A stretch of DNA of 64,000 bases, from assembly GCA_016215455.1 (NCBI GenBank), contig JACRJP010000002.1:2809-66808 (forward strand), read 5' to 3'. The DNA comes from Candidatus Tayloriibacteriota bacterium (lineage in GTDB: Bacteria; Patescibacteriota; Minisyncoccia; Phycocordibacterales; PALSA-1337). The notes under the pieces are model-generated. The model was not told the origin of the DNA and did no database searches. It saw nothing but the letters and a program-made list of their open reading frames with translations. Position numbers and translations under genes: made by a program. Position 1 is the first letter of the stretch. Each line of letters begins with the position of its first letter. Positions 5,630-47,902 of the stretch are shown piece after piece.

Positions 5630-7684
<2,055 letters not shown>

Positions 7685-7689
7685 CTAAA

Positions 7690-8304
7690 TTAGAGTTTGA
7701 GACGAATTGCGCGTTCCACCTTCTTTGGACTTGAACCTGTACAACTACCACTACCGGTTGTCACCCAACCCGCACTATATCCTCGCGATTCAACTACTAT
7801 ATTTTCGTAATTAGTATTACTTGTTCCATCCCATGCGTATCCTCGAGTGATAGAAACCTTTGCACATGTTGTTTCAGCTTTTCCTGTGTTTGTAGAAGAA
7901 AGATTTATATCAAAATCATATTTATATGCGGGAGTCACACTAAAAGTACCGTTCGAACTTGTTTGTACATTTCGAGTAAATCCTTTCCCTGTCACGGTAT
8001 ACCCTAAACCTCCGCAAAAGAAATTAGAAGTTTGAACATCAGCTGGTTGTGATGGTGATGGGAGTGTTGGTAGTGCTTGAGATGCTGTAGAGAACGCTCC
8101 AGCTTGATATTGATACACGACACATTCAATTCCTGTATCAGCTGCATAGATTGCAGATTGCGACTCTCGAGCAGCGCTCGCAAGAATACTTTCTTTACGT
8201 GTGATGTTGAGAATAGAGACGGCTACAGAAAGAACGAGAGAAGTCACCAACACCGCAAAAAGAAGTGTATAGCCATTTTTTTGTTGAGGGAAAATATTTT
8301 TCAT
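7690..8304 (-). CDS. type IV pilus minor pilin/pseudopilin (PilX-like), prepilin-type N-terminus
   Basis: N-terminus ...KNGYTLLFAVLVTSLVLSVAV resembles a class III signal with a hydrophobic helix. It is the first gene of the pilus cluster. Confidence 0.6.
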   Translation of the reverse strand: MKNIFPQQKNGYTLLFAVLVTSLVLSVAVSILNITRKESILASAARESQSAIYAADTGIECVVYQYQAGAFSTASQALPTLPSPSQPADVQTSNFFCGGLGYTVTGKGFTRNVQTSSNGTFSVTPAYKYDFDINLSSTNTGKAETTCAKVSITRGYAWDGTSNTNYENIVVESRGYSAGWVTTGSGSCTGSSPKKVERAIRLKL

Positions 8305-8307
8305 ATA

Positions 8308-8838
8308 TTATCGTATGGCATTATATATAGAACCATATAACACTTCTTCTGAAACAACTCCTCCAGGTCCATCCCAATACACTCGTATTTTTACAGAATA
8401 TTCATTGTCGTTAGTCGAAGCTTTTGTAAACTCCATAGTTCGACTAAACATTGTTCGAGTATTTGCTGCCGCACCGTTATGTGTAAACTTCCCTTCAGGA
8501 GTAAGATATAGTCGTGCTGGATCAGAGCTTTCTGCTCCGTTAGCACTCGAAATGCTTGGAGAATCACTTGCTGTATCTATTTTACAAACTGAATTCTTAC
8601 AACCATTTAGTGAAAGAGGAAGCCATACCGCACTGTCCTCTAAATATCCGTTATCTCGAATATTCTTAACCACTTCCAGAGCATCTTGTGCGAGATAGTT
8701 AGCAACAATCTGATCGCGTGCATACAAAGCAGACTTAAGAGATTTACTTGCAATTGTAAGTGGTCCTGCAATAGCGATCATAAGGACGGTGATCGCGACA
8801 AGAGTTTCTACAAGTGTAAATGCTCGTTGGGTATTCAT
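8308..8838 (-). CDS. prepilin-type pseudopilin (GspH/PilV-like)
   Basis: N-terminus RAFTLVETLVAITVLMIAIAGPL carries the prepilin cleavage/methylation motif. Its stop overlaps the start of the upstream gene. Confidence 0.65.
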   Translation of the reverse strand: MNTQRAFTLVETLVAITVLMIAIAGPLTIASKSLKSALYARDQIVANYLAQDALEVVKNIRDNGYLEDSAVWLPLSLNGCKNSVCKIDTASDSPSISSANGAESSDPARLYLTPEGKFTHNGAAANTRTMFSRTMEFTKASTNDNEYSVKIRVYWDGPGGVVSEEVLYGSIYNAIR

Positions 8839-9466: not shown

Positions 9467-10075
9467 TTAATCTTCAATAGAGATTTGTCCTGTTTTACGA
9501 ACTACAATATTTTTAAGATTACCTTGAGGAGACACCAATACTATTTTAACATACGACAACACCCCACTATTACCTGTGATAATAGCATCGGGATCAGGAC
9601 GTCGAAACGCAATACTCACATTTGGTGTGGTACTTGTACATCCTGAATTGGTACATATTTTCTGAACCACAATTCCTCTCTTGAGAACATACTTTGAAAT
9701 TGCTTCATCTACTGGAGTAGATGTATATATAGAGTTATTTTCAGTTGAATCAACAAAGAAGATAAACTGAGAGTTAGAACCACCTGTTGAACTTAGATAC
9801 ACACCGTATGCACACTGAAAGGTATCCGTACTGTTCACAGAGGAACAACTCGAAGGTGCTTCCTTTACGTTTAATCCGTACGTCTGTGCCTGACGAATTG
9901 TGAGAGCTACATCATATGCAAGATTTGTCACAATAATCCCCTGAGTCGCGTTTCCGTATTTAACAGCAAGAAATGCGGTCACAAAAGCAAAAATAGCAAC
10001 TGTGACCATGAGTTCAATCAAAGTGAACCCTCGAGATACCACAGACTGTGTTTTTTTATTGGAAAAAAAGCGCAT
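9467..10075 (-). CDS. prepilin-type pseudopilin (FimT/GspH-like)
   Basis: Motif SRGFTLIELMVTVAIFAF. I trimmed the start to the internal ATG at 10075 so that the overlap with pilD is only about 19 nt. Confidence 0.6.
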   Translation of the reverse strand: MRFFSNKKTQSVVSRGFTLIELMVTVAIFAFVTAFLAVKYGNATQGIIVTNLAYDVALTIRQAQTYGLNVKEAPSSCSSVNSTDTFQCAYGVYLSSTGGSNSQFIFFVDSTENNSIYTSTPVDEAISKYVLKRGIVVQKICTNSGCTSTTPNVSIAFRRPDPDAIITGNSGVLSYVKIVLVSPQGNLKNIVVRKTGQISIED

Positions 10076-10847
10076 TGAGGAACAAGAAATCAAGATGTCC
10101 AAACCATGCAATATACATGCCGAGAATGAGGTATGGAGCAAACGGAACCTCGACATTCCTAATTGTACGCTTTTTCTTGAGTATCACCAAGTAGATAACA
10201 CTGAAGACTGCCCCGAGCCAGAACGCCATAAAAATCCCTGATACACCGAAGACAAGTCCGGCAAGCCACCCAAGACTTACCACAAGTTTTGCATCACCAA
10301 ATCCAATCCATCGGCCTTTTGAAACAAACCAAAGTCCACCAAATACAGCAAAGAAGATAATACCCGACAAGAAATCAATGAGTTGAGGGAGATGGAGAAG
10401 TGACTCCCCTCCAACGAATAAACCTATGAATGAAACTGCCATGAGAGTAAATGAGAGGCTATCGGGAATAATCTTATGTCGTAGATCGTACACAAAAATA
10501 ACAATAAGAATAGCAGCAGCTATGGCATGAATAACAAAATACAGCATTGCGGGAAGTGTAAAAGGTTCGATACTGTAATACAGCAGTACAAAGAGAACTG
10601 CAGTAGCAGTTTCTACCATTGGATATTGATACGAGATATCACTTCGACAACTCCTACAACGTCCTCGGAGAAAAACAAAACTTACTAACGGTAGTAGTTC
10701 ATACCACTCGAGTTTTTTTGCACAAGAAAAGCATTGTGATCGTCCTCCTATCCCCTTACTACTGTTGTATCTTAAAATAACAACATTCAAAAAACTTCCG
10801 ATGATCAGACCAAATATTGCTACAAATACTCCGATAATGACCAGCAT
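10056..10847 (-). CDS. pilD: prepilin peptidase / N-methyltransferase (A24 family)
   Basis: 263-aa polytopic membrane protein. Has the N-terminal Zn tetracysteine (QCFSCAKK...RGRCRSCRSD) and the conserved catalytic aspartates of peptidase A24. Confidence 0.85.
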   Translation of the reverse strand: MLVIIGVFVAIFGLIIGSFLNVVILRYNSSKGIGGRSQCFSCAKKLEWYELLPLVSFVFLRGRCRSCRSDISYQYPMVETATAVLFVLLYYSIEPFTLPAMLYFVIHAIAAAILIVIFVYDLRHKIIPDSLSFTLMAVSFIGLFVGGESLLHLPQLIDFLSGIIFFAVFGGLWFVSKGRWIGFGDAKLVVSLGWLAGLVFGVSGIFMAFWLGAVFSVIYLVILKKKRTIRNVEVPFAPYLILGMYIAWFGHLDFLFLNALFFQ

Positions 10848-11407: not shown

Positions 11408-12496
11408 ATGTGCTACGATAATGATACCTACAATCTCATGAAAAAGATTCCCCTAGAAATTCTAATCGTATTCCTCCCTTGTGTCATTTTTCTCATACTC
11501 TCTCTGCTCTTTTTCCCAAAATTTCTGATCCTTATAACCCTCAACATACTTGATTTGAGTGGTTTCCAACTCATTATCGAAGGAGGAATACTCAAGGTAC
11601 TTGGAATAAGCTTCCTTATACTATCTATAAGCAGTATCCTATCTTTAATTTTTCTAAAAAAACAGTACTCTCTCAAAGACCTTACAAAAAGTTTCTGTTA
11701 CTTTTTACTTCTTGTTGGTGTGCCCGGATTCTTTTATTCATCATTAGCGTTTTACTTATTTACACATGCTGATATTCCTAAAGTAATAGAATACAGCAAA
11801 CTTTTTTCTCATTATGACAAAGTCATGTTCGGTACTGATATTTTCTTTACAATGCGACCTCTAGAAAAAATTCCTTTATTTGAATTTTTTGTTCTCCATA
11901 GCTATAGCTTATTAGTTCCTATATGTTCAGTATGTGCTCTTGGTATGTATATCTTCAAACCTCTTATATTTAGAAGATTCATTGCAAGCTTCTTTCTTGC
12001 TATGGCACTCGGCATCCCTATGTGGCATTACTTTCCAGCGGTAGCGCCAGCATCATTGTATCTCACTAATATTTTTAGACTCCACCTTGAACCAGAAGAT
12101 CAACAAGCTATCAACAATGACCGTATATCACCTCTTTTGCGAGAAAAACTAACCGAACAAAATAATCTGTATTTTGATCCTACCCTACGAAATATTAATA
12201 CGAGTAGTAATCCATCCATGCACGCAGCGTGGGGATTTATCATATTCTTCTATCTCTATATGTACTCAAAAAGATTGGTATACATCGCTGGAATCTATAG
12301 TATCCTCAATGTACTCGGGGCTCTCTATGTCGGACAACACTTTGGAATCGATATACTCACAGGTATATGTATTGCTATATTGAGTATATATACAGTCGAA
12401 AAAATCTTTACCCGATATGGTAAAGATTTTTTGGAAACACCGTATTATACAGTTAGCTACGCGATCAGAGGGATTATATACAAACTCCGTTATTGA
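11408..12496 (+). CDS. PAP2 (phosphatidic acid phosphatase type 2)-like polytopic membrane protein
   Basis: 362 aa with about 9 TM helices. Contains PSMHAAWG (like PSGH) and YVGQHFGIDILTG (like SRxxxxxHxxxD). It is the only plus-strand gene inside the pilus cluster. Confidence 0.45.
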   Translation: MCYDNDTYNLMKKIPLEILIVFLPCVIFLILSLLFFPKFLILITLNILDLSGFQLIIEGGILKVLGISFLILSISSILSLIFLKKQYSLKDLTKSFCYFLLLVGVPGFFYSSLAFYLFTHADIPKVIEYSKLFSHYDKVMFGTDIFFTMRPLEKIPLFEFFVLHSYSLLVPICSVCALGMYIFKPLIFRRFIASFFLAMALGIPMWHYFPAVAPASLYLTNIFRLHLEPEDQQAINNDRISPLLREKLTEQNNLYFDPTLRNINTSSNPSMHAAWGFIIFFYLYMYSKRLVYIAGIYSILNVLGALYVGQHFGIDILTGICIAILSIYTVEKIFTRYGKDFLETPYYTVSYAIRGIIYKLRY

Positions 12497-12980
12497 TCTG
12501 TGATGTTGTAATTGACGCTGCTGATGTAATAGATGGCCAAACTTTATTATTCCCTGAACTATCAACACACACAGTTCCAGATCCATCAGGTAAAACAGCT
12601 GCAACTGCCCACTTTGTTGCAGGACTTGTTGCACTCGAAACATCAAATGAACATATATAGTCAGTCGCAGCAGATAAGTTGTTAGTCAAACCAGTTCTGA
12701 TTGGTGTAACTGAAGTTGCAGCAAATGCACCGTTTGCACAACCTGTAGTATCACCCTTGCCAATAGCATAGTTTGTTGTTGCACCATATCCAGTTCCATC
12801 TGAATTGATTTCAAGCTGACTTCGAAGACTATTGAGAGTAGCTTTCACTGACGTAGCCTTACTTCTACTTCGAGCTGTACCAAGTGAGGCGAGTACAACT
12901 GAAGACAAAATACCAATAATAGCGATGACCACGAGCAATTCAATCAATGTGAAACCTTTTGAAAAACGATTATATTCCAT
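12474..12980 (-). CDS. type IV pilin (tandem paralog A)
   Basis: Motif SKGFTLIELLVVIAIIGILSSVVLASLGTARS followed by a Gly/Ser/Thr-rich domain with two Cys pairs. Confidence 0.75.
   Translation of the reverse strand: MEYNRFSKGFTLIELLVVIAIIGILSSVVLASLGTARSRSKATSVKATLNSLRSQLEINSDGTGYGATTNYAIGKGDTTGCANGAFAATSVTPIRTGLTNNLSAATDYICSFDVSSATSPATKWAVAAVLPDGSGTVCVDSSGNNKVWPSITSAASITTSQINNGVCI
12869..12957. repeat. 89-bp perfect direct repeat, copy 1 (5' end of pilin paralog A)
   Basis: Identical nucleotide string TTCGAGCTGTACCAAGTGAGGCGAGTACAACTGAAGAC...AATGTGAAACCT occurs again at 13424-13512. Confidence 0.8.
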
Positions 12981-13031
12981 GAGTAAATATTATTTTTTAA
13001 TACACTAAGTATATCATGCTTGAATAAAATC

Positions 13032-13068
13032 AAAAAAAACACCCGCCATACGACGGGTGTTTTTTTTG
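13032..13068. terminator. bidirectional rho-independent terminator
   Basis: A8 run, stem ACACCCG/CGGGTGT with an 8-nt loop, then T8 run. Confidence 0.7.
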
Positions 13069-13088
13069 ACAACAAACTAATTGAAATA

Positions 13089-13529
13089 TTAGTTACAGCC
13101 AGCTGATGCTACAACACCACTGATTGACTTAGCTGCACCTAAACTATCAACACACCAATTATTTCCTCCCTTGAGAGGTACTGACACTGCCCAATATGAA
13201 GCTGATGCTCCACAAGTAGCAGCACCTGCAGCGTTTGATGTTGTTGCTGAATTCAAAATATTCTTAACGGTAGCATCACCAAAGAGACCGAGAGTCTGGC
13301 AGTTCGCAGTTGAAGTTCCAGCTGTTCCAGAAGGCATATATGAATTATTTGAATCATAATAAAGTTCTGCCTGTGAACGAACCTGAGCGAGAGCTCCCTT
13401 AATTGCTGTGTCAGCAGCCTTAGTTCGAGCTGTACCAAGTGAGGCGAGTACAACTGAAGACAAAATACCAATAATAGCGATGACCACGAGCAATTCAATC
13501 AATGTGAAACCTGATGTCTTAATTTTCAT
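13089..13529 (-). CDS. type IV pilin (tandem paralog B)
   Basis: Motif TSGFTLIELLVVIAIIGILSSVVLASLGTART. The C-terminal domain carries Cys pairs. Confidence 0.75.
   Translation of the reverse strand: MKIKTSGFTLIELLVVIAIIGILSSVVLASLGTARTKAADTAIKGALAQVRSQAELYYDSNNSYMPSGTAGTSTANCQTLGLFGDATVKNILNSATTSNAAGAATCGASASYWAVSVPLKGGNNWCVDSLGAAKSISGVVASAGCN
13424..13512. repeat. 89-bp perfect direct repeat, copy 2 (5' end of pilin paralog B)
   Basis: Identical to 12869-12957 by direct comparison of the nucleotide string. Confidence 0.8.
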
Positions 13530-13688
13530 ATGTATTACTAATTTTAATATCTAAAGTGTAAGTCTACCTTACCTTTGTTCATAATTATAGCAAGATTAAC
13601 GGCCATTAATAGTAAAAAAGCTGTATTCTGTGGATAACTAGGGATTTCACCATATTTTATGGTGCATCGTCATCTTTTTTCTAACAAA

Positions 13689-14897
13689 CTACTGAGCAGC
13701 TGAGATGTTATAGATAGGAACAAGCACAGCAGCAAGAAGGAATGCTACACCGAGACCGAGCATAACAATCATAAGTGGCTCAATAAGATCAACAAGTGCA
13801 TCAACAGCCGTCTCTACTTCACGTGCATAGAATTTAGCGAGAGTCTTTAGGATGTTACCGAGTTCTCCTGTTTCTTCACCCACCTTAATCATTTGAATCA
13901 TGATACCTGGGATTTGATCGTTACCTGACAATGCCTCAGAAACAGGTTTACCTCCCTTCACTGCCTCTACGGCGCCTGCAATAATAGAGTTATATATCTT
14001 GTTATCAATCACTGATGAGGTGAGTTCAAGAGCTCGGATCATAGGAATACCCGATACAAGCATAGTATTCATGTTATCTGACAAACGTGAGAGATATAGC
14101 TTCTTATAAAGAGTACTGATATATGGAACAGAAAGCTTAAATCGATCAAACGCAATACTTCCTTCTGGAGTCTTCACAAAACGATAGATAAGGTACCCTA
14201 TAATCGCTGCAATACCAACAATAACGAAACCGTAGTGTACCAAACCGTTACTAATAGCGAGAACGACTTTGGTGTAGATAGGAATCTCCTGACCTGATTC
14301 AACAATAATTGCACTGATCTTTGGAATCACAACAGTAAACATGAGTACCATCACAGTAACGAATGTAAATACCACGAAAGCTGGGTAAATAAGAGCGCTC
14401 TTTGCCTTTGAGGTAAGTTCATATGAACGATCAAGGTAGTCAGCAAGATAATTGAATGTTTCATCAAGACGTCCTGATTCTTCACCTGCCTTTACCATAC
14501 TGATATAAAATTCAGAGAACACTGTTGGATGTTTTCCAAGAGAAGTTGAGATAGAACTACCACCCTGAAGATCATCTGCAATAGTTGCGAGTTTTACTCG
14601 AAGGAGTTTGTTCTCTGTTTCCTCCCCAAGAAGACGGAAGACTCGAAGCGCAGAGACCTGCGCCTGAAAAAGTGTTGAGAGTTGTCGTGACAAGATAACA
14701 ACATCCTTATTTGACACTCGCTCAAACCACGAAATATTTACATCAAAAATAGACTTCTTTCCTCCTGTTTCGTGAATATTTGTGATGACAAAGCCTCGTC
14801 GCTGGAGTGATGCAATAGCAATGTCGACATTAACAGCATCAATTGATCCTGTTTTTTTCTCTCCTTGAGCATCGACAGCTTGGTAAGTAAAAAGCAT
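13689..14897 (-). CDS. pilC: type IV pilus inner-membrane platform protein (GspF/PilC family)
   Basis: 402 aa with two GspF-like repeats and three TM segments. Confidence 0.85.
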   Translation of the reverse strand: MLFTYQAVDAQGEKKTGSIDAVNVDIAIASLQRRGFVITNIHETGGKKSIFDVNISWFERVSNKDVVILSRQLSTLFQAQVSALRVFRLLGEETENKLLRVKLATIADDLQGGSSISTSLGKHPTVFSEFYISMVKAGEESGRLDETFNYLADYLDRSYELTSKAKSALIYPAFVVFTFVTVMVLMFTVVIPKISAIIVESGQEIPIYTKVVLAISNGLVHYGFVIVGIAAIIGYLIYRFVKTPEGSIAFDRFKLSVPYISTLYKKLYLSRLSDNMNTMLVSGIPMIRALELTSSVIDNKIYNSIIAGAVEAVKGGKPVSEALSGNDQIPGIMIQMIKVGEETGELGNILKTLAKFYAREVETAVDALVDLIEPLMIVMLGLGVAFLLAAVLVPIYNISAAQ

Positions 14898-15968: not shown

Positions 15969-16364
15969 TTAACCTTTTATTTTCTTATAAATCTTATTCA
16001 CCTCTTCAAGCACCTCCGATGGAATGGTTGAGGCTTTGATGATATATCCATCAACATGTAATTTCTGAGCTCGTTCAACATCAGAAGGAGCACTTTGATT
16101 AGTGAGCATGATCACCACAGCATTCGGAGCAAGTTTCTCTTTTCGAATTACCTCGAGAAGTTCAACCCCGTCCATTCCTGGCATTACCACATCAAGAAGA
16201 ATAATATCGGGTAACAAACCTCCATCTCGAAGTACTTTCAGTGTTTCTTCAGGCCCTGCTGCACAATGTACGTCATACCCATTCTTCGAAAACTTCAATG
16301 AGTACATATCAAGAAGGAATTTATCATCATCAACAAGAAGTAGAGAAATTGGTTTTGTAGACAT
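15969..16364 (-). CDS. single-domain response regulator (CheY-like receiver, PilH/PilG-like)
   Basis: 131 aa. Motifs LLVDDD, ...LLDVVMPGMDG, ...DGYIIK. Confidence 0.75.
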   Translation of the reverse strand: MSTKPISLLLVDDDKFLLDMYSLKFSKNGYDVHCAAGPEETLKVLRDGGLLPDIILLDVVMPGMDGVELLEVIRKEKLAPNAVVIMLTNQSAPSDVERAQKLHVDGYIIKASTIPSEVLEEVNKIYKKIKG

Positions 16365-23185: not shown

Positions 23186-23274
23186 GGCGGAGAGAGCGAG
23201 ATTCGAACTCGCGGTTCCAATTAAGGAACGGCGGTTTAGTAAACCGCTGGTTTAAACCACTCACCCATCTCTCC
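23186..23274 (-). tRNA. class II (long variable arm) Ser-like tRNA; the anticodon reads ACT by my parse
   Basis: Acceptor GGAGAGA/TCTCTCC with discriminator G. Anticodon stem GCGGT/ACCGC with loop TTACTAA. Variable arm GTTCC-TTAATT-GGAAC. T-arm GCGAG TTCGAAT CTCGC. A partial CC 3' end is encoded. Confidence 0.6.
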
Positions 23275-24255: not shown

Positions 24256-24882
24256 TTAACAAATATACTCACATCTAAGGATTTCCATAGCATCCTGGAC
24301 CTGACCAAACAGTGGAAACAGTCCCTGTCGTTTTGGCTCCTTCTGTTCCAGGTGGAATATCAATATTCGCAGCAGCTGAAGAAACACCGATGCTTGTTCT
24401 GCCACTACTACCAATACAAAAAATCCGTTTTTCCCTGGGAGATAGGCCATAATTGACCAAACTTTTGTGGAGTCCCAGTTTGTTCCATTCACTCCATTAT
24501 ATAAAATATCATTTCGTACTGATCCAACTGTATTTACAATACTCTTACACAAATCTATACCCTGGTTTGCAAAATTTGAAGCTGAAGATACAAATGGAGA
24601 TACTGTCGTATCAACTGATGTCTCTCCAGTACAAAGACGATACCCACTACCAACACCTGTTGTATTCCTCCATGCTCCCCGATTAAAATTTGAGTATGTA
24701 TTTTTTTCTGAAAACTCTAGAGCATGGAGGGTTGCTAATTGTCTCACTTCTTGCATAATTTTTGCATCTTTTGCTTTATCACGAGCCGAGTTCAGACCTG
24801 CAAGGACTATACTACTAAACAGTCCGATGATTGATATAACTACCAATAATTCGATGAGAGTAAAACCTTTGTTTAAATTCAT
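24256..24882 (-). CDS. prepilin-type protein, probably frameshifted near 24418-24432
   Basis: N-terminus KGFTLIELLVVISIIGLFSSIVLAGL. The last ~55 aa of the main frame look non-proteinaceous. An alternative frame (ORF 24275..24460) encodes a pilin-like Gly/Thr-rich tail with a Cys pair. Confidence 0.55.
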   Translation of the reverse strand: MNLNKGFTLIELLVVISIIGLFSSIVLAGLNSARDKAKDAKIMQEVRQLATLHALEFSEKNTYSNFNRGAWRNTTGVGSGYRLCTGETSVDTTVSPFVSSASNFANQGIDLCKSIVNTVGSVRNDILYNGVNGTNWDSTKVWSIMAYLPGKNGFFVLVVVAEQASVFLQLLRILIFHLEQKEPKRQGLFPLFGQVQDAMEILRCEYIC

Positions 24883-32710: not shown

Positions 32711-33123
32711 GGGGATGATTGGCTTCGACGTATGATTCCCTTGTACATATGCACTGGAGAGCTCCATTAACTCTTAAATCTGATGGAAATCGCAACTGCA
32801 AAAAATTCAGTCGCAAAGGCAGTTCGTTCACCGTTTTTCACGGCTAACGATTTTGCTTTCGCTTACGCACGAGCTTAAACACTCTGCCTAATCGACACTT
32901 CTTCCCTATGATCCTGTAGTTGGGCTGAAGTGATATATCCTCAGGATAGGATGTGTACTGTCTCATTACACCTCCGAAACTTAGAGACTCGTATCATGAT
33001 CATTTAGTCCGTTTATAGTTCATGATATTAAAGTGTCACGCAAGTGACACACGAAGCGTACTAACCAGCGTAGAAATATATACAAAGATTATATGCACCC
33101 GGGTTCGATTCCCGGCATCTCCA
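32711..33123 (+). ncRNA. ssrA: transfer-messenger RNA (tmRNA, SsrA)
   Basis: 5' GGGGATGATTGGCTTCGACG... The 3' tRNA-like end is ...GGGTTCGATTCCCGGCATCTCCA. The internal tag ORF ends GCT AAC GAT TTT GCT TTC GCT TAC GCA CGA GCT TAA. The context AAAAAUUCAGUC GCA resembles the E. coli resume-codon context. Confidence 0.8.
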
Positions 33124-33227
33124 CAACTTTATAACAAAAGCACCCATGAGGGTGCTTTTGTGTTTATGGTTGATTTTTTCCACCACCTAATCTAAGCTAG
33201 CCACAGACAACATCGATACTTACTGCT

Positions 33228-35426: not shown

Positions 35427-35456
35427 AAAAAATCACTCGTATGAGTGATTTTTTAT
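35427..35456. terminator. bidirectional rho-independent terminator
   Basis: A6 run, stem ATCACTC/GAGTGAT with loop GTAT, then T7 run. Confidence 0.6.
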
Positions 35457-36373
35457 TTCTCTTGCACCACCAACCTCTTAACAACAGGTGCTTCAGCGAG
35501 ATACATTGATCGAATCTGAGAATCAGCTAAAGCATTACTATAGATATGTACTTCATCAATTACCCCAAGAAAATTATTCCAATCAGCAGTCGAGTCCTGT
35601 TGTCCTAATATAATCGTAGCACCCGAAAGATCACCTGCTTCAGTGTACTGTGCCTCAGAAATTTTTGTTCCATTTAAATAACCTTTCATAGTTTGTGTAC
35701 TTCCTGATGCACCACCTGTCCATGAAAGTGCTACGTTAGTCCATTCCCCAACTTTAGCTTCACCTATATTTAGATTAGTCGCACTCGAGCCCCTCACCAC
35801 TGATACTGTACTTCCAAGTATTCGTAAATAAATTCGATTTGATCCAGACCCTACTGCAAAAAAGAGAATTCTCTGTCCCTGACCAGCTGCACTCAAGTCA
35901 CTAGGCTTAAACCACAAAGATACAGTTCCTCCTTTACTGGTAATACCTGAAAGAGCTGAGGTCGCAGGAACTGTTATCGATAATCTATCTGCACTTGATT
36001 GAAAATTGATCGCATTACCTAAAATCCCTGATACAACCTGAGGAGCACCCGCAACACTGAGGTTGAGTAAATTCCCTGAAAGGTCACTCACCCTTGTTGG
36101 ACTCGTATCAATTGCATCCATACTCCAATAGACAGGTGCATCAGCGCCGTACGCATGATACGTACTTGCATCAAATTGTTTACCCGCCGCAAGTTTAGCT
36201 TTCGTTCGAGTTGTAGTAAGACTTGCAAGTACCACCGAAGAAAGTAGTCCAATGATTGATATAACTACAAGTAGCTCAATGAGCGTAAAGGCTTTTGTAG
36301 AAAATACAGAGAATGATTTCATGTACGTAAATAATAACACACTCAATAAAATGATTACCACTTTTTTATCCAT
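35453..36373 (-). CDS. prepilin-type N-terminus fused to a LamG/concanavalin-A-like lectin domain (candidate adhesive tip pilin)
   Basis: Motif KAFTLIELLVVISIIGLLSSVVLASL. The C-terminus shows the LamG_3-type signature ...GEWTNVALSW...LGVIDEVHIYSNALADSQI. An alternative start lies at the internal ATG near 36322. Confidence 0.65.
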   Translation of the reverse strand: MDKKVVIILLSVLLFTYMKSFSVFSTKAFTLIELLVVISIIGLLSSVVLASLTTTRTKAKLAAGKQFDASTYHAYGADAPVYWSMDAIDTSPTRVSDLSGNLLNLSVAGAPQVVSGILGNAINFQSSADRLSITVPATSALSGITSKGGTVSLWFKPSDLSAAGQGQRILFFAVGSGSNRIYLRILGSTVSVVRGSSATNLNIGEAKVGEWTNVALSWTGGASGSTQTMKGYLNGTKISEAQYTEAGDLSGATIILGQQDSTADWNNFLGVIDEVHIYSNALADSQIRSMYLAEAPVVKRLVVQEK

Positions 36374-44995: not shown

Positions 44996-47902
44996 TTAGA
45001 TTGGGAGATTTACAGGAGGTTGTTGTGTAGGTTTCGATACCGGAACATCAGAGGTTCGTGATACTGGTGGGGTATCCACAACGAAGCGTGGAGTCGTATT
45101 AAGTGGGGTGCGAGGTACTGTCGGAGTCGCAGATGGTAGTTTTGGACGTTCATACTTCTTCATGACCTCACTTTCAACAATACTTCGTTCACGACCATAC
45201 TTCAAATATGAGAGTTCCTTAAGATTTGGAACAATTCCCTTGTCACCCGCTACTGGAGCGATAGTTTCAATATCAAAGGGTTTAATTGGTTGACCATTTG
45301 AGAGGATCTTGAGATACGCATGACGGTTCTCAATATTCATGAGGTCTTTTGCAGTAAAGACTGGTGAGAACTGCTTTTCAAGATATTCAGCATCGTCAGC
45401 ACCTACACGAAATACTGCCATTGAACCGACGTTACCGAACACTGAATCACGAATACCCTCTTCAAGTTGGGCGATAAACTGATGCGCGATATTAAGTGAC
45501 AACTTATACTTTCGAGCTTCAGACAAAATGGTTGAAATAGAATTTGTTGTAACATTCTGGAATTCATCGATATACAAATAGAATGATGGCAAATTCTGAC
45601 CGAGTGAATCAACACGTGAAAGTGCTGCCATAAGAATTTTACCCACAAGAATGAGACCAATGAGATTAGCATTGATATCTCCAAGACGTCCCTTTGAAAG
45701 ATTAACCAAAAGAATCTTCTTTGAGTCCATGATCTCACGGAAATTAAACGTCGATTTCTCTTGAGCAACAATCGGACGCATAATATCATTCGACAAAAAC
45801 ACATCGAATTTACTTGTGATATACGGCACAATATTTGAAAGAGATGCTTCCCCTCCCGCCTTCTCAGCGACATCTCTCCAGAACTGAACAACAATTGGAT
45901 TCTTACATCGTGAAAGTTTAAGTTCACGATATTGTTTCTGAGCAAGAACGCGTGATACATCAAGGAGTGTATTTCCTGATTCAGGATCTTCCATGACAAG
46001 AAGTACTGCGTTACGGAAATACTGCTCAAACATTGGACCTCCTGCCGTCTTCATATCAAACAACTTATTAAATATCGACAACATCTCATTCACCACGAAT
46101 GTTTTTTGTTCAGGATATCGAGCATCAAACTCAAGCATGTTGAGTCCCATCGGGCGATCGGTGTATCCAGGATCAAAATAAATAACGTCTTCATATCGAT
46201 GTCGTGGAATCGCAGCTAGAATATCCTGGATGTCAGAGCCGTGAGGGTCAATCATACACACACCGTCTCCCCTCTCAATATCCTGAATGATCATGTTCTT
46301 GAGAAGTGTTGTCTTACCGGTACCTGTCTGACCAATAGCGTAGAAGTGGCGTAGACGATCTTCATCAGTAAGGAATATTTTTGTTGTGATATTTCGATGG
46401 TGATTAAGACCGAGCACAGTACCTTGCTGTGGCAAATCGATTGGTGCAGGAGCACCACCAGCCTTTGATATTTTGAGTTGAGGAGCTGTTCGTATAACCG
46501 TTGATGGAAAATGGACCATACTTGTAAGTTCTCGGAAACTTAGAGGAATCTTCTGATCCTCATCAAAAAGACGGAAAGTAAAATCATGAATACCGTGTGC
46601 TAGACCATTACCAATCAAACGATTAAATCGAATTCGATTTCCGGTTGGATTATCAAATTGATTAAATGCAGATTCAATCTCCCCCAACACATTACTTGCA
46701 GTCATTTCATCTTTAGCTGATGCGACAATACGAATATTCGCCAAGACAATTGGACTTGAAATTTTATTCTTAATATTCTCAACTGCAATCGCATCAACAG
46801 GAACAGTTTCTTCCTCCTTCTTTTCAGAAAAAGTTTTTACAATATCCTTACCAAATGCCCATATATGTTCAAACTTAGACTCAGGTATATCAATCGCTTC
46901 TTTAACCTTTGTTCCTTTATTAATCTTATCAATTGCCTTCTTGTACGCTCCTGTGTACTTATCACCACAAGGATTAAATATCATCTGAAGAGCTGCCCCC
47001 TGACCATCCTTAGCTATCTTTGAAAATGAATTGAGAATAACATTGAGTGGATCATGATCAAATTGTTCATATGTCTTGAGAGAAAATATCGGCTTACGAC
47101 CTGACATAGCATACGACATTTTGGTAACACCCTTTTCAGAAAAGATATTATAATCATCTTTTTTCTCAACTATCTTTGCATTATGGAAGATAGAGAGAAT
47201 CTGTTTTTCAAGAAGATTCCTTTTTGTATCATGGACAGCGACATAGAAAACAAACTCATCGCTATGATTCGCTACTGCAATTTCAAAAGCAAAAAAATTG
47301 GTACCATCCTGATTATCATCATTAACCGACAACATACCTGCATAGAATTGTTCCATTGATGAGACAAGTTCTTTGAGATTCTTTTGCTCAGCATCCTTGC
47401 CCGCTTCAGGAAGTGTCACTTCATAGAGAGTTACTTTCAATGCACGATACAAAGAGTCGCTTTCTTTAAGACCTGGAATAGGAAAACCTGCCTTAATATA
47501 CTGCACAAGAAAACGTTCGAAGTCATCCTCAATATGTGGATCCTTCAGATTTTTTACAATTGTAAGAGCGTTTTTAAAACCTTTTTCTCGAAAGATTCCA
47601 ACAAGTTCAGCCATCGTATCATCATGCGTCTCGGGAGTAAGTTCAAGAACAATAGCCTCGGTTTCGCGTGCTGAAGCAGCATACTCCGGATGCAACACTT
47701 CCCCTGGATGAACTTGACCGTACTCTTTAATAACCTCACGTGCAATATGAGACTGTTCAGAAGAAGAGATGTTGGCAAGTTTACCTTCAACTTTACGCGA
47801 TGCTAGTTCACGTTCTTTTTCAGCAACTTGAGCACGTAGATATGCAAGCTCCTGTTCAGGATTACGAAGACCCGCTTGAATATCAAGAGAAAACTTTTCC
47901 AT
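44996..47902 (-). CDS. large soluble P-loop ATPase of the FtsK/HerA/T4CP (TraG-VirD4)/VirB4-like class, with a ~480-aa N-terminal domain and a Pro-rich tail
   Basis: 968 aa. Walker A HFYAIGQTGTGKTT. About 260 aa downstream is a Walker B-like motif YLYIDEFQN, followed by AHQ. No TM helix. The C-terminal ~60 aa are Pro/Thr-rich. Confidence 0.6.
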   Translation of the reverse strand: MEKFSLDIQAGLRNPEQELAYLRAQVAEKERELASRKVEGKLANISSSEQSHIAREVIKEYGQVHPGEVLHPEYAASARETEAIVLELTPETHDDTMAELVGIFREKGFKNALTIVKNLKDPHIEDDFERFLVQYIKAGFPIPGLKESDSLYRALKVTLYEVTLPEAGKDAEQKNLKELVSSMEQFYAGMLSVNDDNQDGTNFFAFEIAVANHSDEFVFYVAVHDTKRNLLEKQILSIFHNAKIVEKKDDYNIFSEKGVTKMSYAMSGRKPIFSLKTYEQFDHDPLNVILNSFSKIAKDGQGAALQMIFNPCGDKYTGAYKKAIDKINKGTKVKEAIDIPESKFEHIWAFGKDIVKTFSEKKEEETVPVDAIAVENIKNKISSPIVLANIRIVASAKDEMTASNVLGEIESAFNQFDNPTGNRIRFNRLIGNGLAHGIHDFTFRLFDEDQKIPLSFRELTSMVHFPSTVIRTAPQLKISKAGGAPAPIDLPQQGTVLGLNHHRNITTKIFLTDEDRLRHFYAIGQTGTGKTTLLKNMIIQDIERGDGVCMIDPHGSDIQDILAAIPRHRYEDVIYFDPGYTDRPMGLNMLEFDARYPEQKTFVVNEMLSIFNKLFDMKTAGGPMFEQYFRNAVLLVMEDPESGNTLLDVSRVLAQKQYRELKLSRCKNPIVVQFWRDVAEKAGGEASLSNIVPYITSKFDVFLSNDIMRPIVAQEKSTFNFREIMDSKKILLVNLSKGRLGDINANLIGLILVGKILMAALSRVDSLGQNLPSFYLYIDEFQNVTTNSISTILSEARKYKLSLNIAHQFIAQLEEGIRDSVFGNVGSMAVFRVGADDAEYLEKQFSPVFTAKDLMNIENRHAYLKILSNGQPIKPFDIETIAPVAGDKGIVPNLKELSYLKYGRERSIVESEVMKKYERPKLPSATPTVPRTPLNTTPRFVVDTPPVSRTSDVPVSKPTQQPPVNLPI

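Follow-up and report, generated by a model that had tools for sequence, protein, structure and literature searches.

In Neisseria gonorrhoeae and N. meningitidis, type IV pilin paralogues with a conserved N-terminus and hypervariable globular parts undergo RecA-type non-reciprocal conversion (PMC4023411, PMC5485169), and the silent pilS copies that stand beside the expressed pilE have neither a promoter nor the constant region (PMC4023411; Cahoon and Seifert via PMC5485169). Here we analyzed two tandem pilin genes, P1 and P2, within a 64-kb window (the whole stretch of DNA under study). The likeness to Neisseria is clear, with one reversal: conversion there diversifies the variable part of one expressed gene (PMC4023411, PMC5485169), whereas conversion between P1 and P2 would homogenise the constant part. 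P1 and P2 also differ in being both complete, with no G4 element between 10 and 16 kb and no silent copies within the window. Tandem filament-subunit paralogues that are more alike within than between genomes, and that combine concerted evolution with diversifying exposed parts, have been reported for the Trw pilin arrays of Bartonella (Nystedt et al. 2008, cited in PMC12102498); that system belongs to type IV secretion, whereas the genes studied here encode type IV pili in a candidate phylum (CPR) and share a tract limited to a 5' segment of about 60-130 nt. More broadly, long-lasting concerted evolution in prokaryotes has been described (PMC6053082), in a paper whose text has no occurrence of the word "pilin". 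As a mechanistic model we consider tufA/tufB of Salmonella, in which conversion is homology-dependent and processive, produces contiguous tracts and is blocked by non-homologous sequence; the two tuf copies are nearly identical over their full length and far apart (PMC5485169), whereas P1 and P2 are convertible only in a short island.

Pairs of tandem major pilins with identical N-termini that use one machinery are known from Streptococcus sanguinis (PilE1/PilE2; PMC6497953, PMC10628169) and Legionella (PilA1/PilA2; PMC13170364). The two S. sanguinis pilins co-assemble into heteropolymeric pili and are functionally non-equivalent (PMC6497953, PMC10628169). They are highly similar throughout, unlike P1 and P2, which have globular domains that look unrelated and are separated by a strong terminator. 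Our search of the literature found nothing on pilin gene conversion in CPR bacteria, nor on N-termini of type IV pilins that evolve in concert. The archaellins of Halobacterium were considered as a further parallel, and set aside as irrelevant.

The pilA groups of Pseudomonas aeruginosa, with their accessory genes, and Dichelobacter fimA are hypervariable major-pilin loci of Proteobacteria subject to allele replacement. Like the loci analyzed here, they combine conserved flanks and a conserved N-terminus with bodies that are exchanged between close strains, and genes for accessory membrane proteins move together with the pilin. They usually hold one pilA, in contrast to the arrays of 1-4 pilins seen here, in which constant regions are homogenised within a genome. 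In Moraxella, tfpQ/tfpI form an invertible pilin switch based on inverted repeats and the Piv invertase. There too recombination takes place in a common N-terminal coding segment, and it places alternative C-terminal domains behind one promoter; the P1/P2 repeats, in contrast, are direct, and no invertase is encoded in the window. A site-specific invertible switch of the Piv or shufflon type was accordingly rejected for this locus, as no recombinase domain was found by Pfam among 39 window proteins, a set that is complete for ORFs of 110 aa or longer from about 3.2 to 23 kb. Among the related loci, an inverted pilin pair was present in L009 only.

The source of the DNA is an uncultured ultrasmall bacterium of Candidatus Taylorbacteria (Paceibacteria, Patescibacteria). 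P1 and P2 are located just after pilC within a complete type IV pilus cluster, which on the minus strand reads pilM, pilO, pilB, a response regulator gene, pilT, pilC, P1, P2, the PAP2 gene (on the opposite strand), P3, pilD and minor pilins. The variable pilin zone is bordered upstream by the conserved platform-protein gene pilC (13689..14897, minus strand; PF00482) and downstream by the prepilin peptidase gene pilD (10056..10847, minus strand; PF06750 and PF01478). Within it, the pilC-proximal gene P1 (13089..13529, minus strand; 146 aa, leader MKIKTS, NCBI MBI5126166.1) and P2 (12474..12980, minus strand; 168 aa, leader MEYNRFSK, NCBI MBI5126165.1) encode major-type type IV pilins. A gene for a PAP2-family membrane protein (11408..12496, plus strand; PF14378/PF01569) is inserted antisense into the array and overlaps the 3' end of P2 by 23 nt, an arrangement that is the same in the relative L168. 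P3 (10848..11369, minus strand), an "F-type" pilin of a type conserved across relatives, adjoins pilD; it is outside the tract shared by P1 and P2, and served as an internal control.

Both P1 and P2 have the short basic leader, Gly(-1), Phe+1, Glu+5 and ~20-residue hydrophobic helix of type IV pilins, and they scored above the curated cut-offs of PF07963 (32.5 bits for P1 and 36.4 for P2; cut-off 21.2) and TIGR02532 (31.9 and 35.5 bits; cut-off 16.3). Both genes are full length, running from the start codon and leader through Gly-1 and Glu+5 to a C-terminal Cys pair. Each protein has four Cys, including that pair (CVDS...GxC), and the motif WAV...CVDSxG is kept in both. Among solved structures, P1 comes closest to the T4a major pilins Thermus PilA (6xxd), aligned over residues 8-121, and Neisseria PilE, over residues 8-114; the best solved match of P2, again 6xxd, extends only to about residue 91, and most of its matches cover the helix alone. 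The globular domains of P1 and P2 are of different types.

Direct comparison of the sequences bore out the base-for-base identity that the first-pass annotation had read between positions 12869-12957 and 13424-13512: all 89 of 89 bases agree, and the flanks differ at once (12868 from 13423, and 12958 from 13513). Copy 1 (13424..13512, minus strand) is in P1 and copy 2 (12869..12957, minus strand) in P2, in direct orientation with a 555-nt spacing. No match of this length is expected by chance (0 in dinucleotide-preserving shuffles), and there is no third copy in the 64-kb window, even allowing up to 3 mismatches. The repeat spans from 1 base before the Gly(-1) codon to 1 base past the Arg(+29) codon; it thus takes in the final base of the last leader codon, then Gly(-1) and the codons from +1 to +29 (FTLIELLVVIAIIGILSSVVLASLGTAR), and lastly one base of codon +30, within the PF07963/TIGR02532 domain. 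What it encodes is the cleavage-site Gly and the mature alpha1-N helix, that is, the constant region of both pilins. It had been described as encoding the class-III signal together with the N-terminal helix; this is right for the helix, and wrong for the leader part of the signal, since the two leaders lie outside the repeat and differ. The repeat is the only block of at least 20 nt common to P1 and P2; a second shared stretch, of 14/14 nt, is found at the CVDS motif (12557-12570 and 13142-13155). An Rfam search returned tRNAs and tmRNA only, with no family in the repeat region.

An intrinsic-terminator hairpin follows P1 (13029..13070, minus strand), with an A-run before it, a T-run after it, and a folding energy of -31 kcal/mol (z = -8.6); its stem is perfect over 16 nt (up to 19 pairs). 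A bidirectional terminator had been proposed at 13032-13068: the hairpin is real, and, as the genes on either side of it have the same orientation, bidirectionality has no bearing here. Comparable hairpins with a T-rich tail were found in 50 of the 70 intergenic regions that follow the first pilin in relatives. The extended -10-like motif TGCTATAAT (13584..13592, minus strand), 54 nt ahead of the P1 start codon, is a putative P1 promoter; it is kept in the close relatives L161 and L163, and motifs of this type are enriched upstream of first pilins in relatives (30 of 127 cases, with 4.4 expected from shuffles). Similarly, the extended -10-like motif TGATATACT (13008..13016, minus strand), located after the terminator and ahead of P2, is a putative P2 promoter. 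The P2 orthologue of L168 has TGGTATACT past its own terminator, and a stricter motif, TGnTA[TAC]AAT, which the P2 site of the window does not match, occurs between first and second pilins in 19 of 67 cases (2.4 expected). A 17-nt inverted repeat (12396..12435), which directly follows the stop codon of P2 and falls within the 3'-terminal part of the convergent PAP2 gene, could act as the P2 terminator. With a strong terminator between the two genes and a promoter-like motif for each, the suggestion that P1 and P2 may be expressed independently appears sound.

Outside the repeat, the two pilins have little in common. BLASTP aligns P1 and P2 only up to about residue 53, and tblastn detected no similarity between their globular parts, so that the claim of complete divergence downstream is nearly right, with the exception of the four Cys and the WAV...CVDSxG motif. 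The bodies are closest to pilins of other species: that of P1 to L003_7823 and L132_7419, and that of P2 to L012_7393, L006_8670 and P0125 (65% identity over the whole protein). Yet within the repeat the same codon is used at 29 of 29 positions with the same amino acid. Against P3, from the same genome, P1 or P2 share the codon at 10 of 22-23 such positions, and the constant region of P3 has 65% DNA identity to the repeat. Other pilin pairs share codons at about 33-45% of positions with the same amino acid; across 9,177 between-genome pilin pairs, the shared-codon fraction had a median of 0.32-0.40, and none reached 0.95. The protein collection contained no near-identical P2 variants or chimeric leaders, its best match being 65% identical.

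We gathered 160 related loci, with pilC as anchor. The PilC-anchored search of species-representative genomes and JGI metagenomes had best matches 75-76% identical, and thus sampled other species rather than a population of this one; closer relatives were found solely via a large protein collection. A mosaic, defined as an exact 5' run of at least 40 nt in a pair, was observed in 24 of the 97 loci with at least two major-size pilins, a count to be read with the proviso that the compared genomes include metagenome-assembled ones, that short-read assemblers can collapse near-identical repeats to identical, and that the true repeat identity in some of them could be slightly below 100%. The shared runs mostly begin 0-3 nt from the Gly codon; tract lengths range from 40 to 130 nt, and tract sequences are genome-specific. 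In this respect pairs within a genome exceeded pairs between genomes, whatever the divergence of their bodies (Mann-Whitney p 0.016 to 4e-7). In a clade of four species (L040, L048, L077 and L075; PilC 83-95% identical) the bodies cluster by orthologue class, whereas in the first 63 nt 11 variable sites have a concerted pattern, 0 an orthologue pattern and 2 a mixed one, and the identity matrices of tract and bodies disagree. The predominance of concerted over orthologue-pattern sites (11 to 0) indicates recurrent gene conversion. Overall, the relatives present the features of concerted evolution in several lineages: paralogues more similar than orthologues in the tract, synonymous homogenisation, and conflicting histories of tract and body.

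The closest relatives allow the event in this genome to be placed in time. Compared with the orthologous segment of L161, whose PilC is 95% identical, the window has 11 differences in 88 sites. Every one is synonymous, and the 11 sites are the same for P1 as for P2, which between themselves have 0/88 differences. The corresponding segment of L163 differs from P1/P2 at 8 of 73 sites. From these comparisons it can be said that the event homogenising P1 and P2 is younger than the split from L161. No tract was found in L001 and L005, the nearest in the species-representative set (PilC 74-76% identical), which indicates that the process is not universal. A 50-mer from the repeat was absent from the JGI metagenome contigs.

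We consider it likely that the 89-bp identity is a gene-conversion tract between complete, separately transcribed and long-diverged pilins, and that such conversion recurs in the lineage. P1 and P2 are complete major-type pilin genes, each probably with its own transcript, in the variable slot between pilC and pilD, and a non-reciprocal patch of homologous recombination, presumably of RecA type, would have copied the alpha1-N coding segment from one paralogue into the other. The tract would be limited to the sole part of both genes that purifying selection has kept similar enough for recombination, which would explain why its start at Gly(-1) coincides with the end of the unrelated leaders, and its other end, at codon 30, with the onset of divergence between the proteins. 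Since both flanks of the tract are non-homologous, a patch transfer is needed, and a single crossover is insufficient. The first-pass annotation had spoken of ongoing gene conversion. Conversion is supported by the bodies being nearer to other species, by the 29/29 shared codons and by the concerted relatives; only one event is strictly needed in the window genome, and one genome cannot show that the process is ongoing, though it may be currently active in this species. A transfer from P1 to P2 was considered from the different N-terminus of the L168 P2 orthologue, and dismissed as too weak, L168 being more distant. The recombination-related proteins encoded in the window are RecG and LigA only. 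In the lineage as a whole, recurrent conversion would subject the constant region to concerted evolution. The one PilD/PilC/PilB machinery would then be offered the same assembly helix by every major pilin of a genome, perhaps with some selective benefit. This region would also be a recombination junction for deletion or duplication of array members and for body replacement over evolutionary time, outcomes that are observed in relatives.

A simple recent tandem duplication, followed by very fast diversifying divergence past codon 30 with a constrained 5' end left identical, would account for the tandem layout with its 555-nt spacing. Pilin bodies do evolve fast in this lineage (40-75% amino-acid identity where PilC is at least 94.5% identical), and genuine whole-gene recent duplicates exist in relatives, such as L052, with copies identical over 429 nt. 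P1 and P2, however, are not such a duplication: no relationship is seen between their leaders, between their upstream regions or in the DNA that borders the tract on its 5' side, each body is nearer to the pilins of other species than to the other, and 0 synonymous changes in 29 codons stand beside saturated divergence of the remaining gene. Furthermore, the P2 orthologue of L168 is already placed behind its own terminator and promoter-like motif, before the same PAP2 and F-type pilin genes, indicating that the P2 slot is older than the split of the two lineages. The duplication scenario is thus largely refuted already, and very improbable. Still less credit can be given to selection on the 89 nucleotides themselves, for instance as the target of a regulatory RNA, as a signal for translation or targeting, or through genome-specific codon optimisation. 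The segment encodes a membrane-targeted hydrophobic helix, for which codon choice can matter, and codon sharing is slightly higher within a genome (~45%) than between genomes (~35%); but P3 and other prepilins of the same genome encode nearly the same peptide at only ~65% DNA identity, orthologues with PilC 88-95% identical carry 8-11 synonymous differences, and no Rfam family is present in the region.

An assembly artefact, with a near-repeat merged or duplicated or with pilin alleles of different strains mis-joined into a false tandem, is suggested by the source being a metagenome-assembled genome, by the ability of k-mer assemblers to pop bubbles in near-identical repeats, and by the strain contig L165, which departs from the window exactly at the terminator. 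Independent assemblies make this explanation exceedingly doubtful. In three sequencing runs, the Logan contigs with this pilC all stop at 13483, 30 nt into copy 1, while the Logan contig L164, coming from the other side, begins at 12898, 30 nt into copy 2 from its 3' side. Assuming a Logan k-mer size of k=31, breaks k-1 nt into each copy are what a true exact repeat with these boundaries is expected to produce in the graph, as are the two distinct contexts seen on each side of the repeat. The same L165, from JGI, is independent evidence that pilC and the leader, repeat and body of P1 belong together; L168 independently has the slot-2 order of terminator, promoter-like motif and P2-type gene; and the same mosaic recurs in dozens of unrelated assemblies. 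Searching the contig index for exact copies of P1 and P2 gave no match, because both genes are interrupted by Logan contig ends. As k-mer assemblies are broken precisely at these pilin genes by exact repeats of 60-130 nt, pilin arrays will be under-represented or truncated in short-k assemblies. There remains the proposal, made in the first-pass annotation, of a cassette system for antigenic or adhesive variation. Programmed variation of the pilE/pilS type, in which one expressed pilin is rewritten at high frequency from silent cassettes, would fit identical DNA common to pilin paralogues and hypervariable pilin bodies among relatives, and the short 14-nt CVDS block could in principle flank a cassette. 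Against it, neither gene is truncated, P1 and P2 each have a promoter-like motif and a terminator to themselves, and the block that they share is the constant region, the very part that the silent copies of Neisseria lack. The second block of homology, of 14 nt only, is under the usual RecA minimum of ~25-30 nt, which leaves one block of RecA length. No truncated or promoterless pilin bodies were found in the 64-kb window (tblastn E<=10, blastn), nor any G-quadruplex (G3-tract) motif on either strand between 10 and 16 kb; as stated, no recombinase was detected either. A single direct repeat leads to deletion or duplication, not to reversible cassette swapping. Within the 64-kb window the cassette proposal thus finds no support, and programmed variation is a most improbable reading of this locus.

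The repeat had also been seen as a recombination substrate for the variable domains; this holds on an evolutionary scale and in relatives only, and not as cassette swapping. L161 (PilC 95% identical) carries a P2-type body behind the promoter and leader of P1. In the strain pairs L113/L114 and L118/L120, identity is 100% or nearly so across the upstream DNA and the constant region, and then drops abruptly. Where bodies have been replaced among close relatives, the breakpoint coincides with the border of the constant region. The number of pilin copies ranges from 1 to 4 or more among relatives. It is possible, though we hold it only tentatively, that the homogenised alpha1-N segment of Paceibacteria is a portable constant-region handle, kept recombinogenic by conversion, with bodies deleted, duplicated, moved between promoters of the array and replaced, via natural transformation, by alleles of other strains. 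The L161 fusion, the breakpoints in the two strain pairs and the variation in copy number partly favour this possibility, which, if true, would give host-dependent ultrasmall bacteria a modular way to change the binding targets of their pili.

Patescibacteria are naturally competent (PMC10633639), and type IV pili are the main known means by which their cultivated members find, bind and compete for hosts (PMC11623550). In Paceibacteria, major pilins appear to be maintained as arrays whose members have a single, homogenised assembly helix and surface domains that are exchanged rapidly, and these arrays point to a source of host-range or phage-escape variation in an uncultured group. For annotators and phylogeneticists, they also carry a warning: the N-termini of pilins in these genomes do not record the history of the genes.

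The two tandem major-type pilin genes P1 (13089-13529, minus strand, 146 aa, MBI5126166.1) and P2 (12474-12980, minus strand, 168 aa, MBI5126165.1) are part of a complete minus-strand type IV pilus cluster. The gene order is pilM, pilO-like, pilB, response regulator, pilT, pilC, P1, P2, a PAP2-family membrane protein gene (opposite strand), P3 (an F-type pilin), pilD, four to five minor pilins and ligA. Both P1 and P2 score above the curated cut-offs for the prepilin N-terminal methylation domain and show likeness to solved T4a major pilins. A self-comparison of the window bore out the perfect 89-bp identity reported in the first-pass annotation: 12869-12957 and 13424-13512 match at 89/89 positions, with abrupt edges, the adjoining bases mismatching immediately on each side. 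No third copy was found in the 64-kb window with up to 3 mismatches tolerated, and shuffled sequence gave 0 comparable matches. In gene orientation, the repeat spans from 1 base 5' of the Gly(-1) codon to 1 base 3' of the Arg(+29) codon, and encodes G|FTLIELLVVIAIIGILSSVVLASLGTAR, i.e. the prepilin cleavage site and the hydrophobic alpha1-N helix. The coding content proposed at first thus holds for the cleavage site and helix but not for the leader peptides, which fall outside the repeat and are unrelated (MKIKTS in P1, MEYNRFSK in P2). The only other DNA common to the two genes is a 14-nt exact match (12557-12570 and 13142-13155) at conserved C-V-D-S codons in the C-terminal disulfide region, which alone is too short to be a recombination block.

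The window comes from a Candidatus Taylorbacteria metagenome-assembled genome at NCBI, where PilC is MBI5126167.1 and the contig is 244,953 bp long. All comparison data are also metagenome assemblies, in which bubble-popping could turn near-identity into identity; however, it cannot make identity out of ~65-75% similarity. The Logan contigs carrying this pilC, from 3 different sequencing runs, all stop at window position 13483, and a Logan contig from the pilD side begins at 12898, so that each break lies exactly 30 nt into a repeat copy. A de Bruijn graph at k=31, as used by Logan, breaks in this way at a true exact repeat with two contexts per side. Independent linkage of pilC with the leader, repeat and body of P1 comes from L165, a JGI contig of a strain with 97.6% identity. 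L165 matches the window at this level across the pilC 3' end and P1; at ~13069 (compared with L165:1358-1483), exactly where the terminator hairpin 3' of P1 begins, all similarity is lost and an unrelated ORF (MFGNDKSREQ...) follows. This break could be a strain-level structural variant without P2 here, or a chimeric short contig.

As the first-pass annotation had noted, P1 and P2 diverge downstream of the repeat: their BLASTP alignment ends at about residue 53, and tblastn found no similarity between the globular parts. Pilins of other species (e.g., L003_7823 and L132_7419) match the P1 body best, with P2 outside its top matches, and the P2 body is nearest to L012_7393 and L006_8670. In a collection of 5.8 billion proteins, the nearest relative of the P2 body is P0125 (65% full-length), a P2-type pilin of the related locus L168. 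Since P0125 follows a terminator and a promoter-like motif and is itself followed by an antisense PAP2 gene and an F-type pilin, just as P2 is, the second slot is older than the split of those lineages. With bodies dissimilar and nearer to pilins of other species, we rejected a recent duplication of P1 and P2.

The identity also exceeds what protein constraint requires. Codon choice agrees between P1 and P2 at 29/29 positions, whereas either one matches P3 of the same genome at 10 of 22-23 same-amino-acid codons; at the 0.45 per codon computed from these P3 comparisons, the chance of 29/29 is ~1e-10. The median codon match was 0.32-0.40 in 9,177 between-genome pilin pairs, 0 of which reached 0.95. 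In the orthologous segment of two related loci, L161 (PilC 95% identical) and L163 (PilC 88% identical), 11/88 and 8/73 sites, respectively, differ from the window; L161 encodes the same peptide, and its 11 sites are the same for P1 and P2. The homogenising event therefore postdates those splits. Since the flanks of the tract are non-homologous on both sides, a single crossover is insufficient, and the transfer of a patch, that is gene conversion, is needed. Together with the codon match and the old bodies, this upholds gene conversion, previously proposed as ongoing, as the past event from which the identity arose.

We fetched 160 loci from species-representative genomes and metagenomes using PilC as anchor. 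Their layout is conserved: pilC, 1-4 or more major-size pilins, usually an F-type pilin, pilD and minor pilins. Two or more major-size pilins were present in 97 of the loci, and in 24 of these a pilin pair has an exact 5' run of at least 40 nt in common; examples are L024 (130 nt), L075 (119), L007 (110), L011 (94-98, three copies), L040 (95) and L128 (83). As a rule, these runs begin 0-3 nt from the Gly codon, with body identities mostly of just 25-50%. Codon match was higher within than between genomes at all levels of body divergence (Mann-Whitney p 0.016 to 4e-7). The clade L040/L048/L077/L075, with PilC identities of 83-95%, is the clearest example. By their bodies, its genes form a short P1 class and a long P2 class, each orthologous among the four species; of the variable sites within the first 63 nt, by contrast, 11 are common to both paralogs of each genome, 0 show the ortholog pattern and 2 are mixed. 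Such a pattern amounts to concerted evolution through recurrent gene conversion. The three pilin genes of L011 (7329-11300) have a ~2.7 kb insert between the first and the second. In L009 (7377-8422) two pilin genes are convergent, with an inverted repeat made up of their leaders (MNIVRQGA...) and constant regions and containing exact runs of 24 nt and then 62 nt, indicating that homogenisation operates on inverted copies too. By analogy with the Moraxella switch, an inversion there would exchange the two bodies between promoters.

Over evolutionary time, pilin bodies are exchanged at the 3' edge of the constant region. Where the PilC proteins of two loci share at least 94.5% identity, DNA identity of the leader and constant region in slot 1 is 87-100%, while the bodies of all non-identical pairs but L058/L126 (97%) share 40-75% amino acid identity. 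Between L113 and L114, identity is 100% through most of the 600-nt upstream stretch and 90-100% in the constant region, then falls sharply to 37-80%; L118 and L120 have the same breakpoint profile, with a body identity of 43%. Pilin copy number also differs between strains: L114 has an additional tandem pilin absent from L113 (one vs two, at about 7374-8480), with pilC and intergenic DNA identical. Some differences of the first L114 pilin from that of L113 agree with L114's own second pilin, which suggests paralog-to-paralog conversion within the variable body as well. In the window, a crossover at the repeat would place the P2 body behind the promoter and leader of P1. L161, the closest relative with usable context, is an existing example of this combination: its one pilin after pilC has a P1-type upstream region and leader (MKIKTR), and of all collected pilins, P2 of the window matches its body best (E = 2e-17), with P1 outside the top twelve. 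At ~45% identity, the two bodies are of the same type, not recent orthologs.

The first-pass annotation saw in the repeat an antigenic- or adhesive-variation cassette system. A single direct repeat can delete or duplicate the intervening DNA, without reversible cassette swapping. We found no truncated or promoterless pilin body copies in the window, no second homology block between P1 and P2 beyond the 14 nt, no G-quadruplex motif at 10-16 kb, and no invertase or recombinase in the cluster. In Neisseria pilE/pilS, moreover, the silent copies lack the constant region, whereas here it is the shared part. On the evidence of the 64-kb window, a pilE/pilS-type system, an invertible pilin switch and the cassette claim were thus all discarded.

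The hairpin proposed as a terminator between the two genes is real. Lying 3' of P1, it (13029-13070) has a perfect stem flanked by A and T runs (-31 kcal/mol, z = -8.6), and an extended -10-like motif precedes both P1 (13592-13584, minus strand, TGCTATAAT) and P2 (13016-13008, minus strand, TGATATACT). The P1 motif is kept in 2 close relatives, and the P2 ortholog of L168 has the terminator and then the motif, as in the window. Across related loci the motif is enriched upstream of both the first and the second pilin, and 50/70 have a terminator-like hairpin 3' of the first. On sequence grounds, independent transcription of P1 and P2, as first suggested, is therefore plausible.

The PAP2-family gene (11408-12496, plus strand) lies antisense in the pilin array, convergent with P2, and the two genes overlap by 23 nt. 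L168 likewise has PAP2 between the P2 ortholog and the F-type pilin; at the corresponding place L161 encodes a membrane protein that is different and unrecognised. PAP2 may be an accessory gene associated with the pilin, like those of Pseudomonas pilin islands. The stand-alone response-regulator receiver gene between pilB and pilT (15969-16364, minus strand), found at the same position in L161, L162, L166 and L169/L170, is a candidate regulator of pilus extension/retraction.

Proteobacteria offer familiar examples of hypervariable major-pilin loci. For gene conversion between paralogs there are well-known precedents in tuf genes (PMC5485169) and Neisseria pilins (PMC4023411) and, according to a citation in PMC12102498, in the Trw pilin arrays of Bartonella; Streptococcus sanguinis has co-assembling tandem major pilins with identical N-termini (PMC6497953). 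In Salmonella tuf, conversion tracts are contiguous and halted by non-homologous sequence (PMC5485169), which fits a tract limited to the sole conserved island of the gene. Our literature search found no paper on concerted evolution of the pilin constant region, nor on gene conversion among Patescibacteria type IV pilins. The gene-converted constant region is thus, on good support, a new case of a known phenomenon, unsurprising to a specialist, and it helps in understanding surface variation in host-dependent ultrasmall bacteria.

Two further prepilin genes lie outside the pilus cluster (35453-36373 and 24256-24882, both minus strand). Their constant regions have just 17-nt runs in common and fall outside the conversion network. 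The product of the former (306 aa) combines a pilin N-terminus with a Laminin_G_3/ConA-like lectin domain (PF13385, E = 1.6e-17), making it a candidate modular adhesin pilin. At 23186-23274 (minus strand) ARAGORN predicts a tRNA-Ser with anticodon ACT, and Rfam agrees on a tRNA (56.9 bits). This anticodon is unusual in bacteria, and could be a mis-assigned position or a real oddity. A tmRNA of ~415 nt (32711-33126, plus strand) has a long predicted tag peptide, AKNSVAKAVRSPFFTANDFAFAYARA. Finally, a 968-aa protein (44996-47902, minus strand) has weak matches to TrwB_AAD_bind and TraG-D_C, domains of type IV secretion coupling proteins, and may be part of the Patescibacteria T4SS of PMC12102498.
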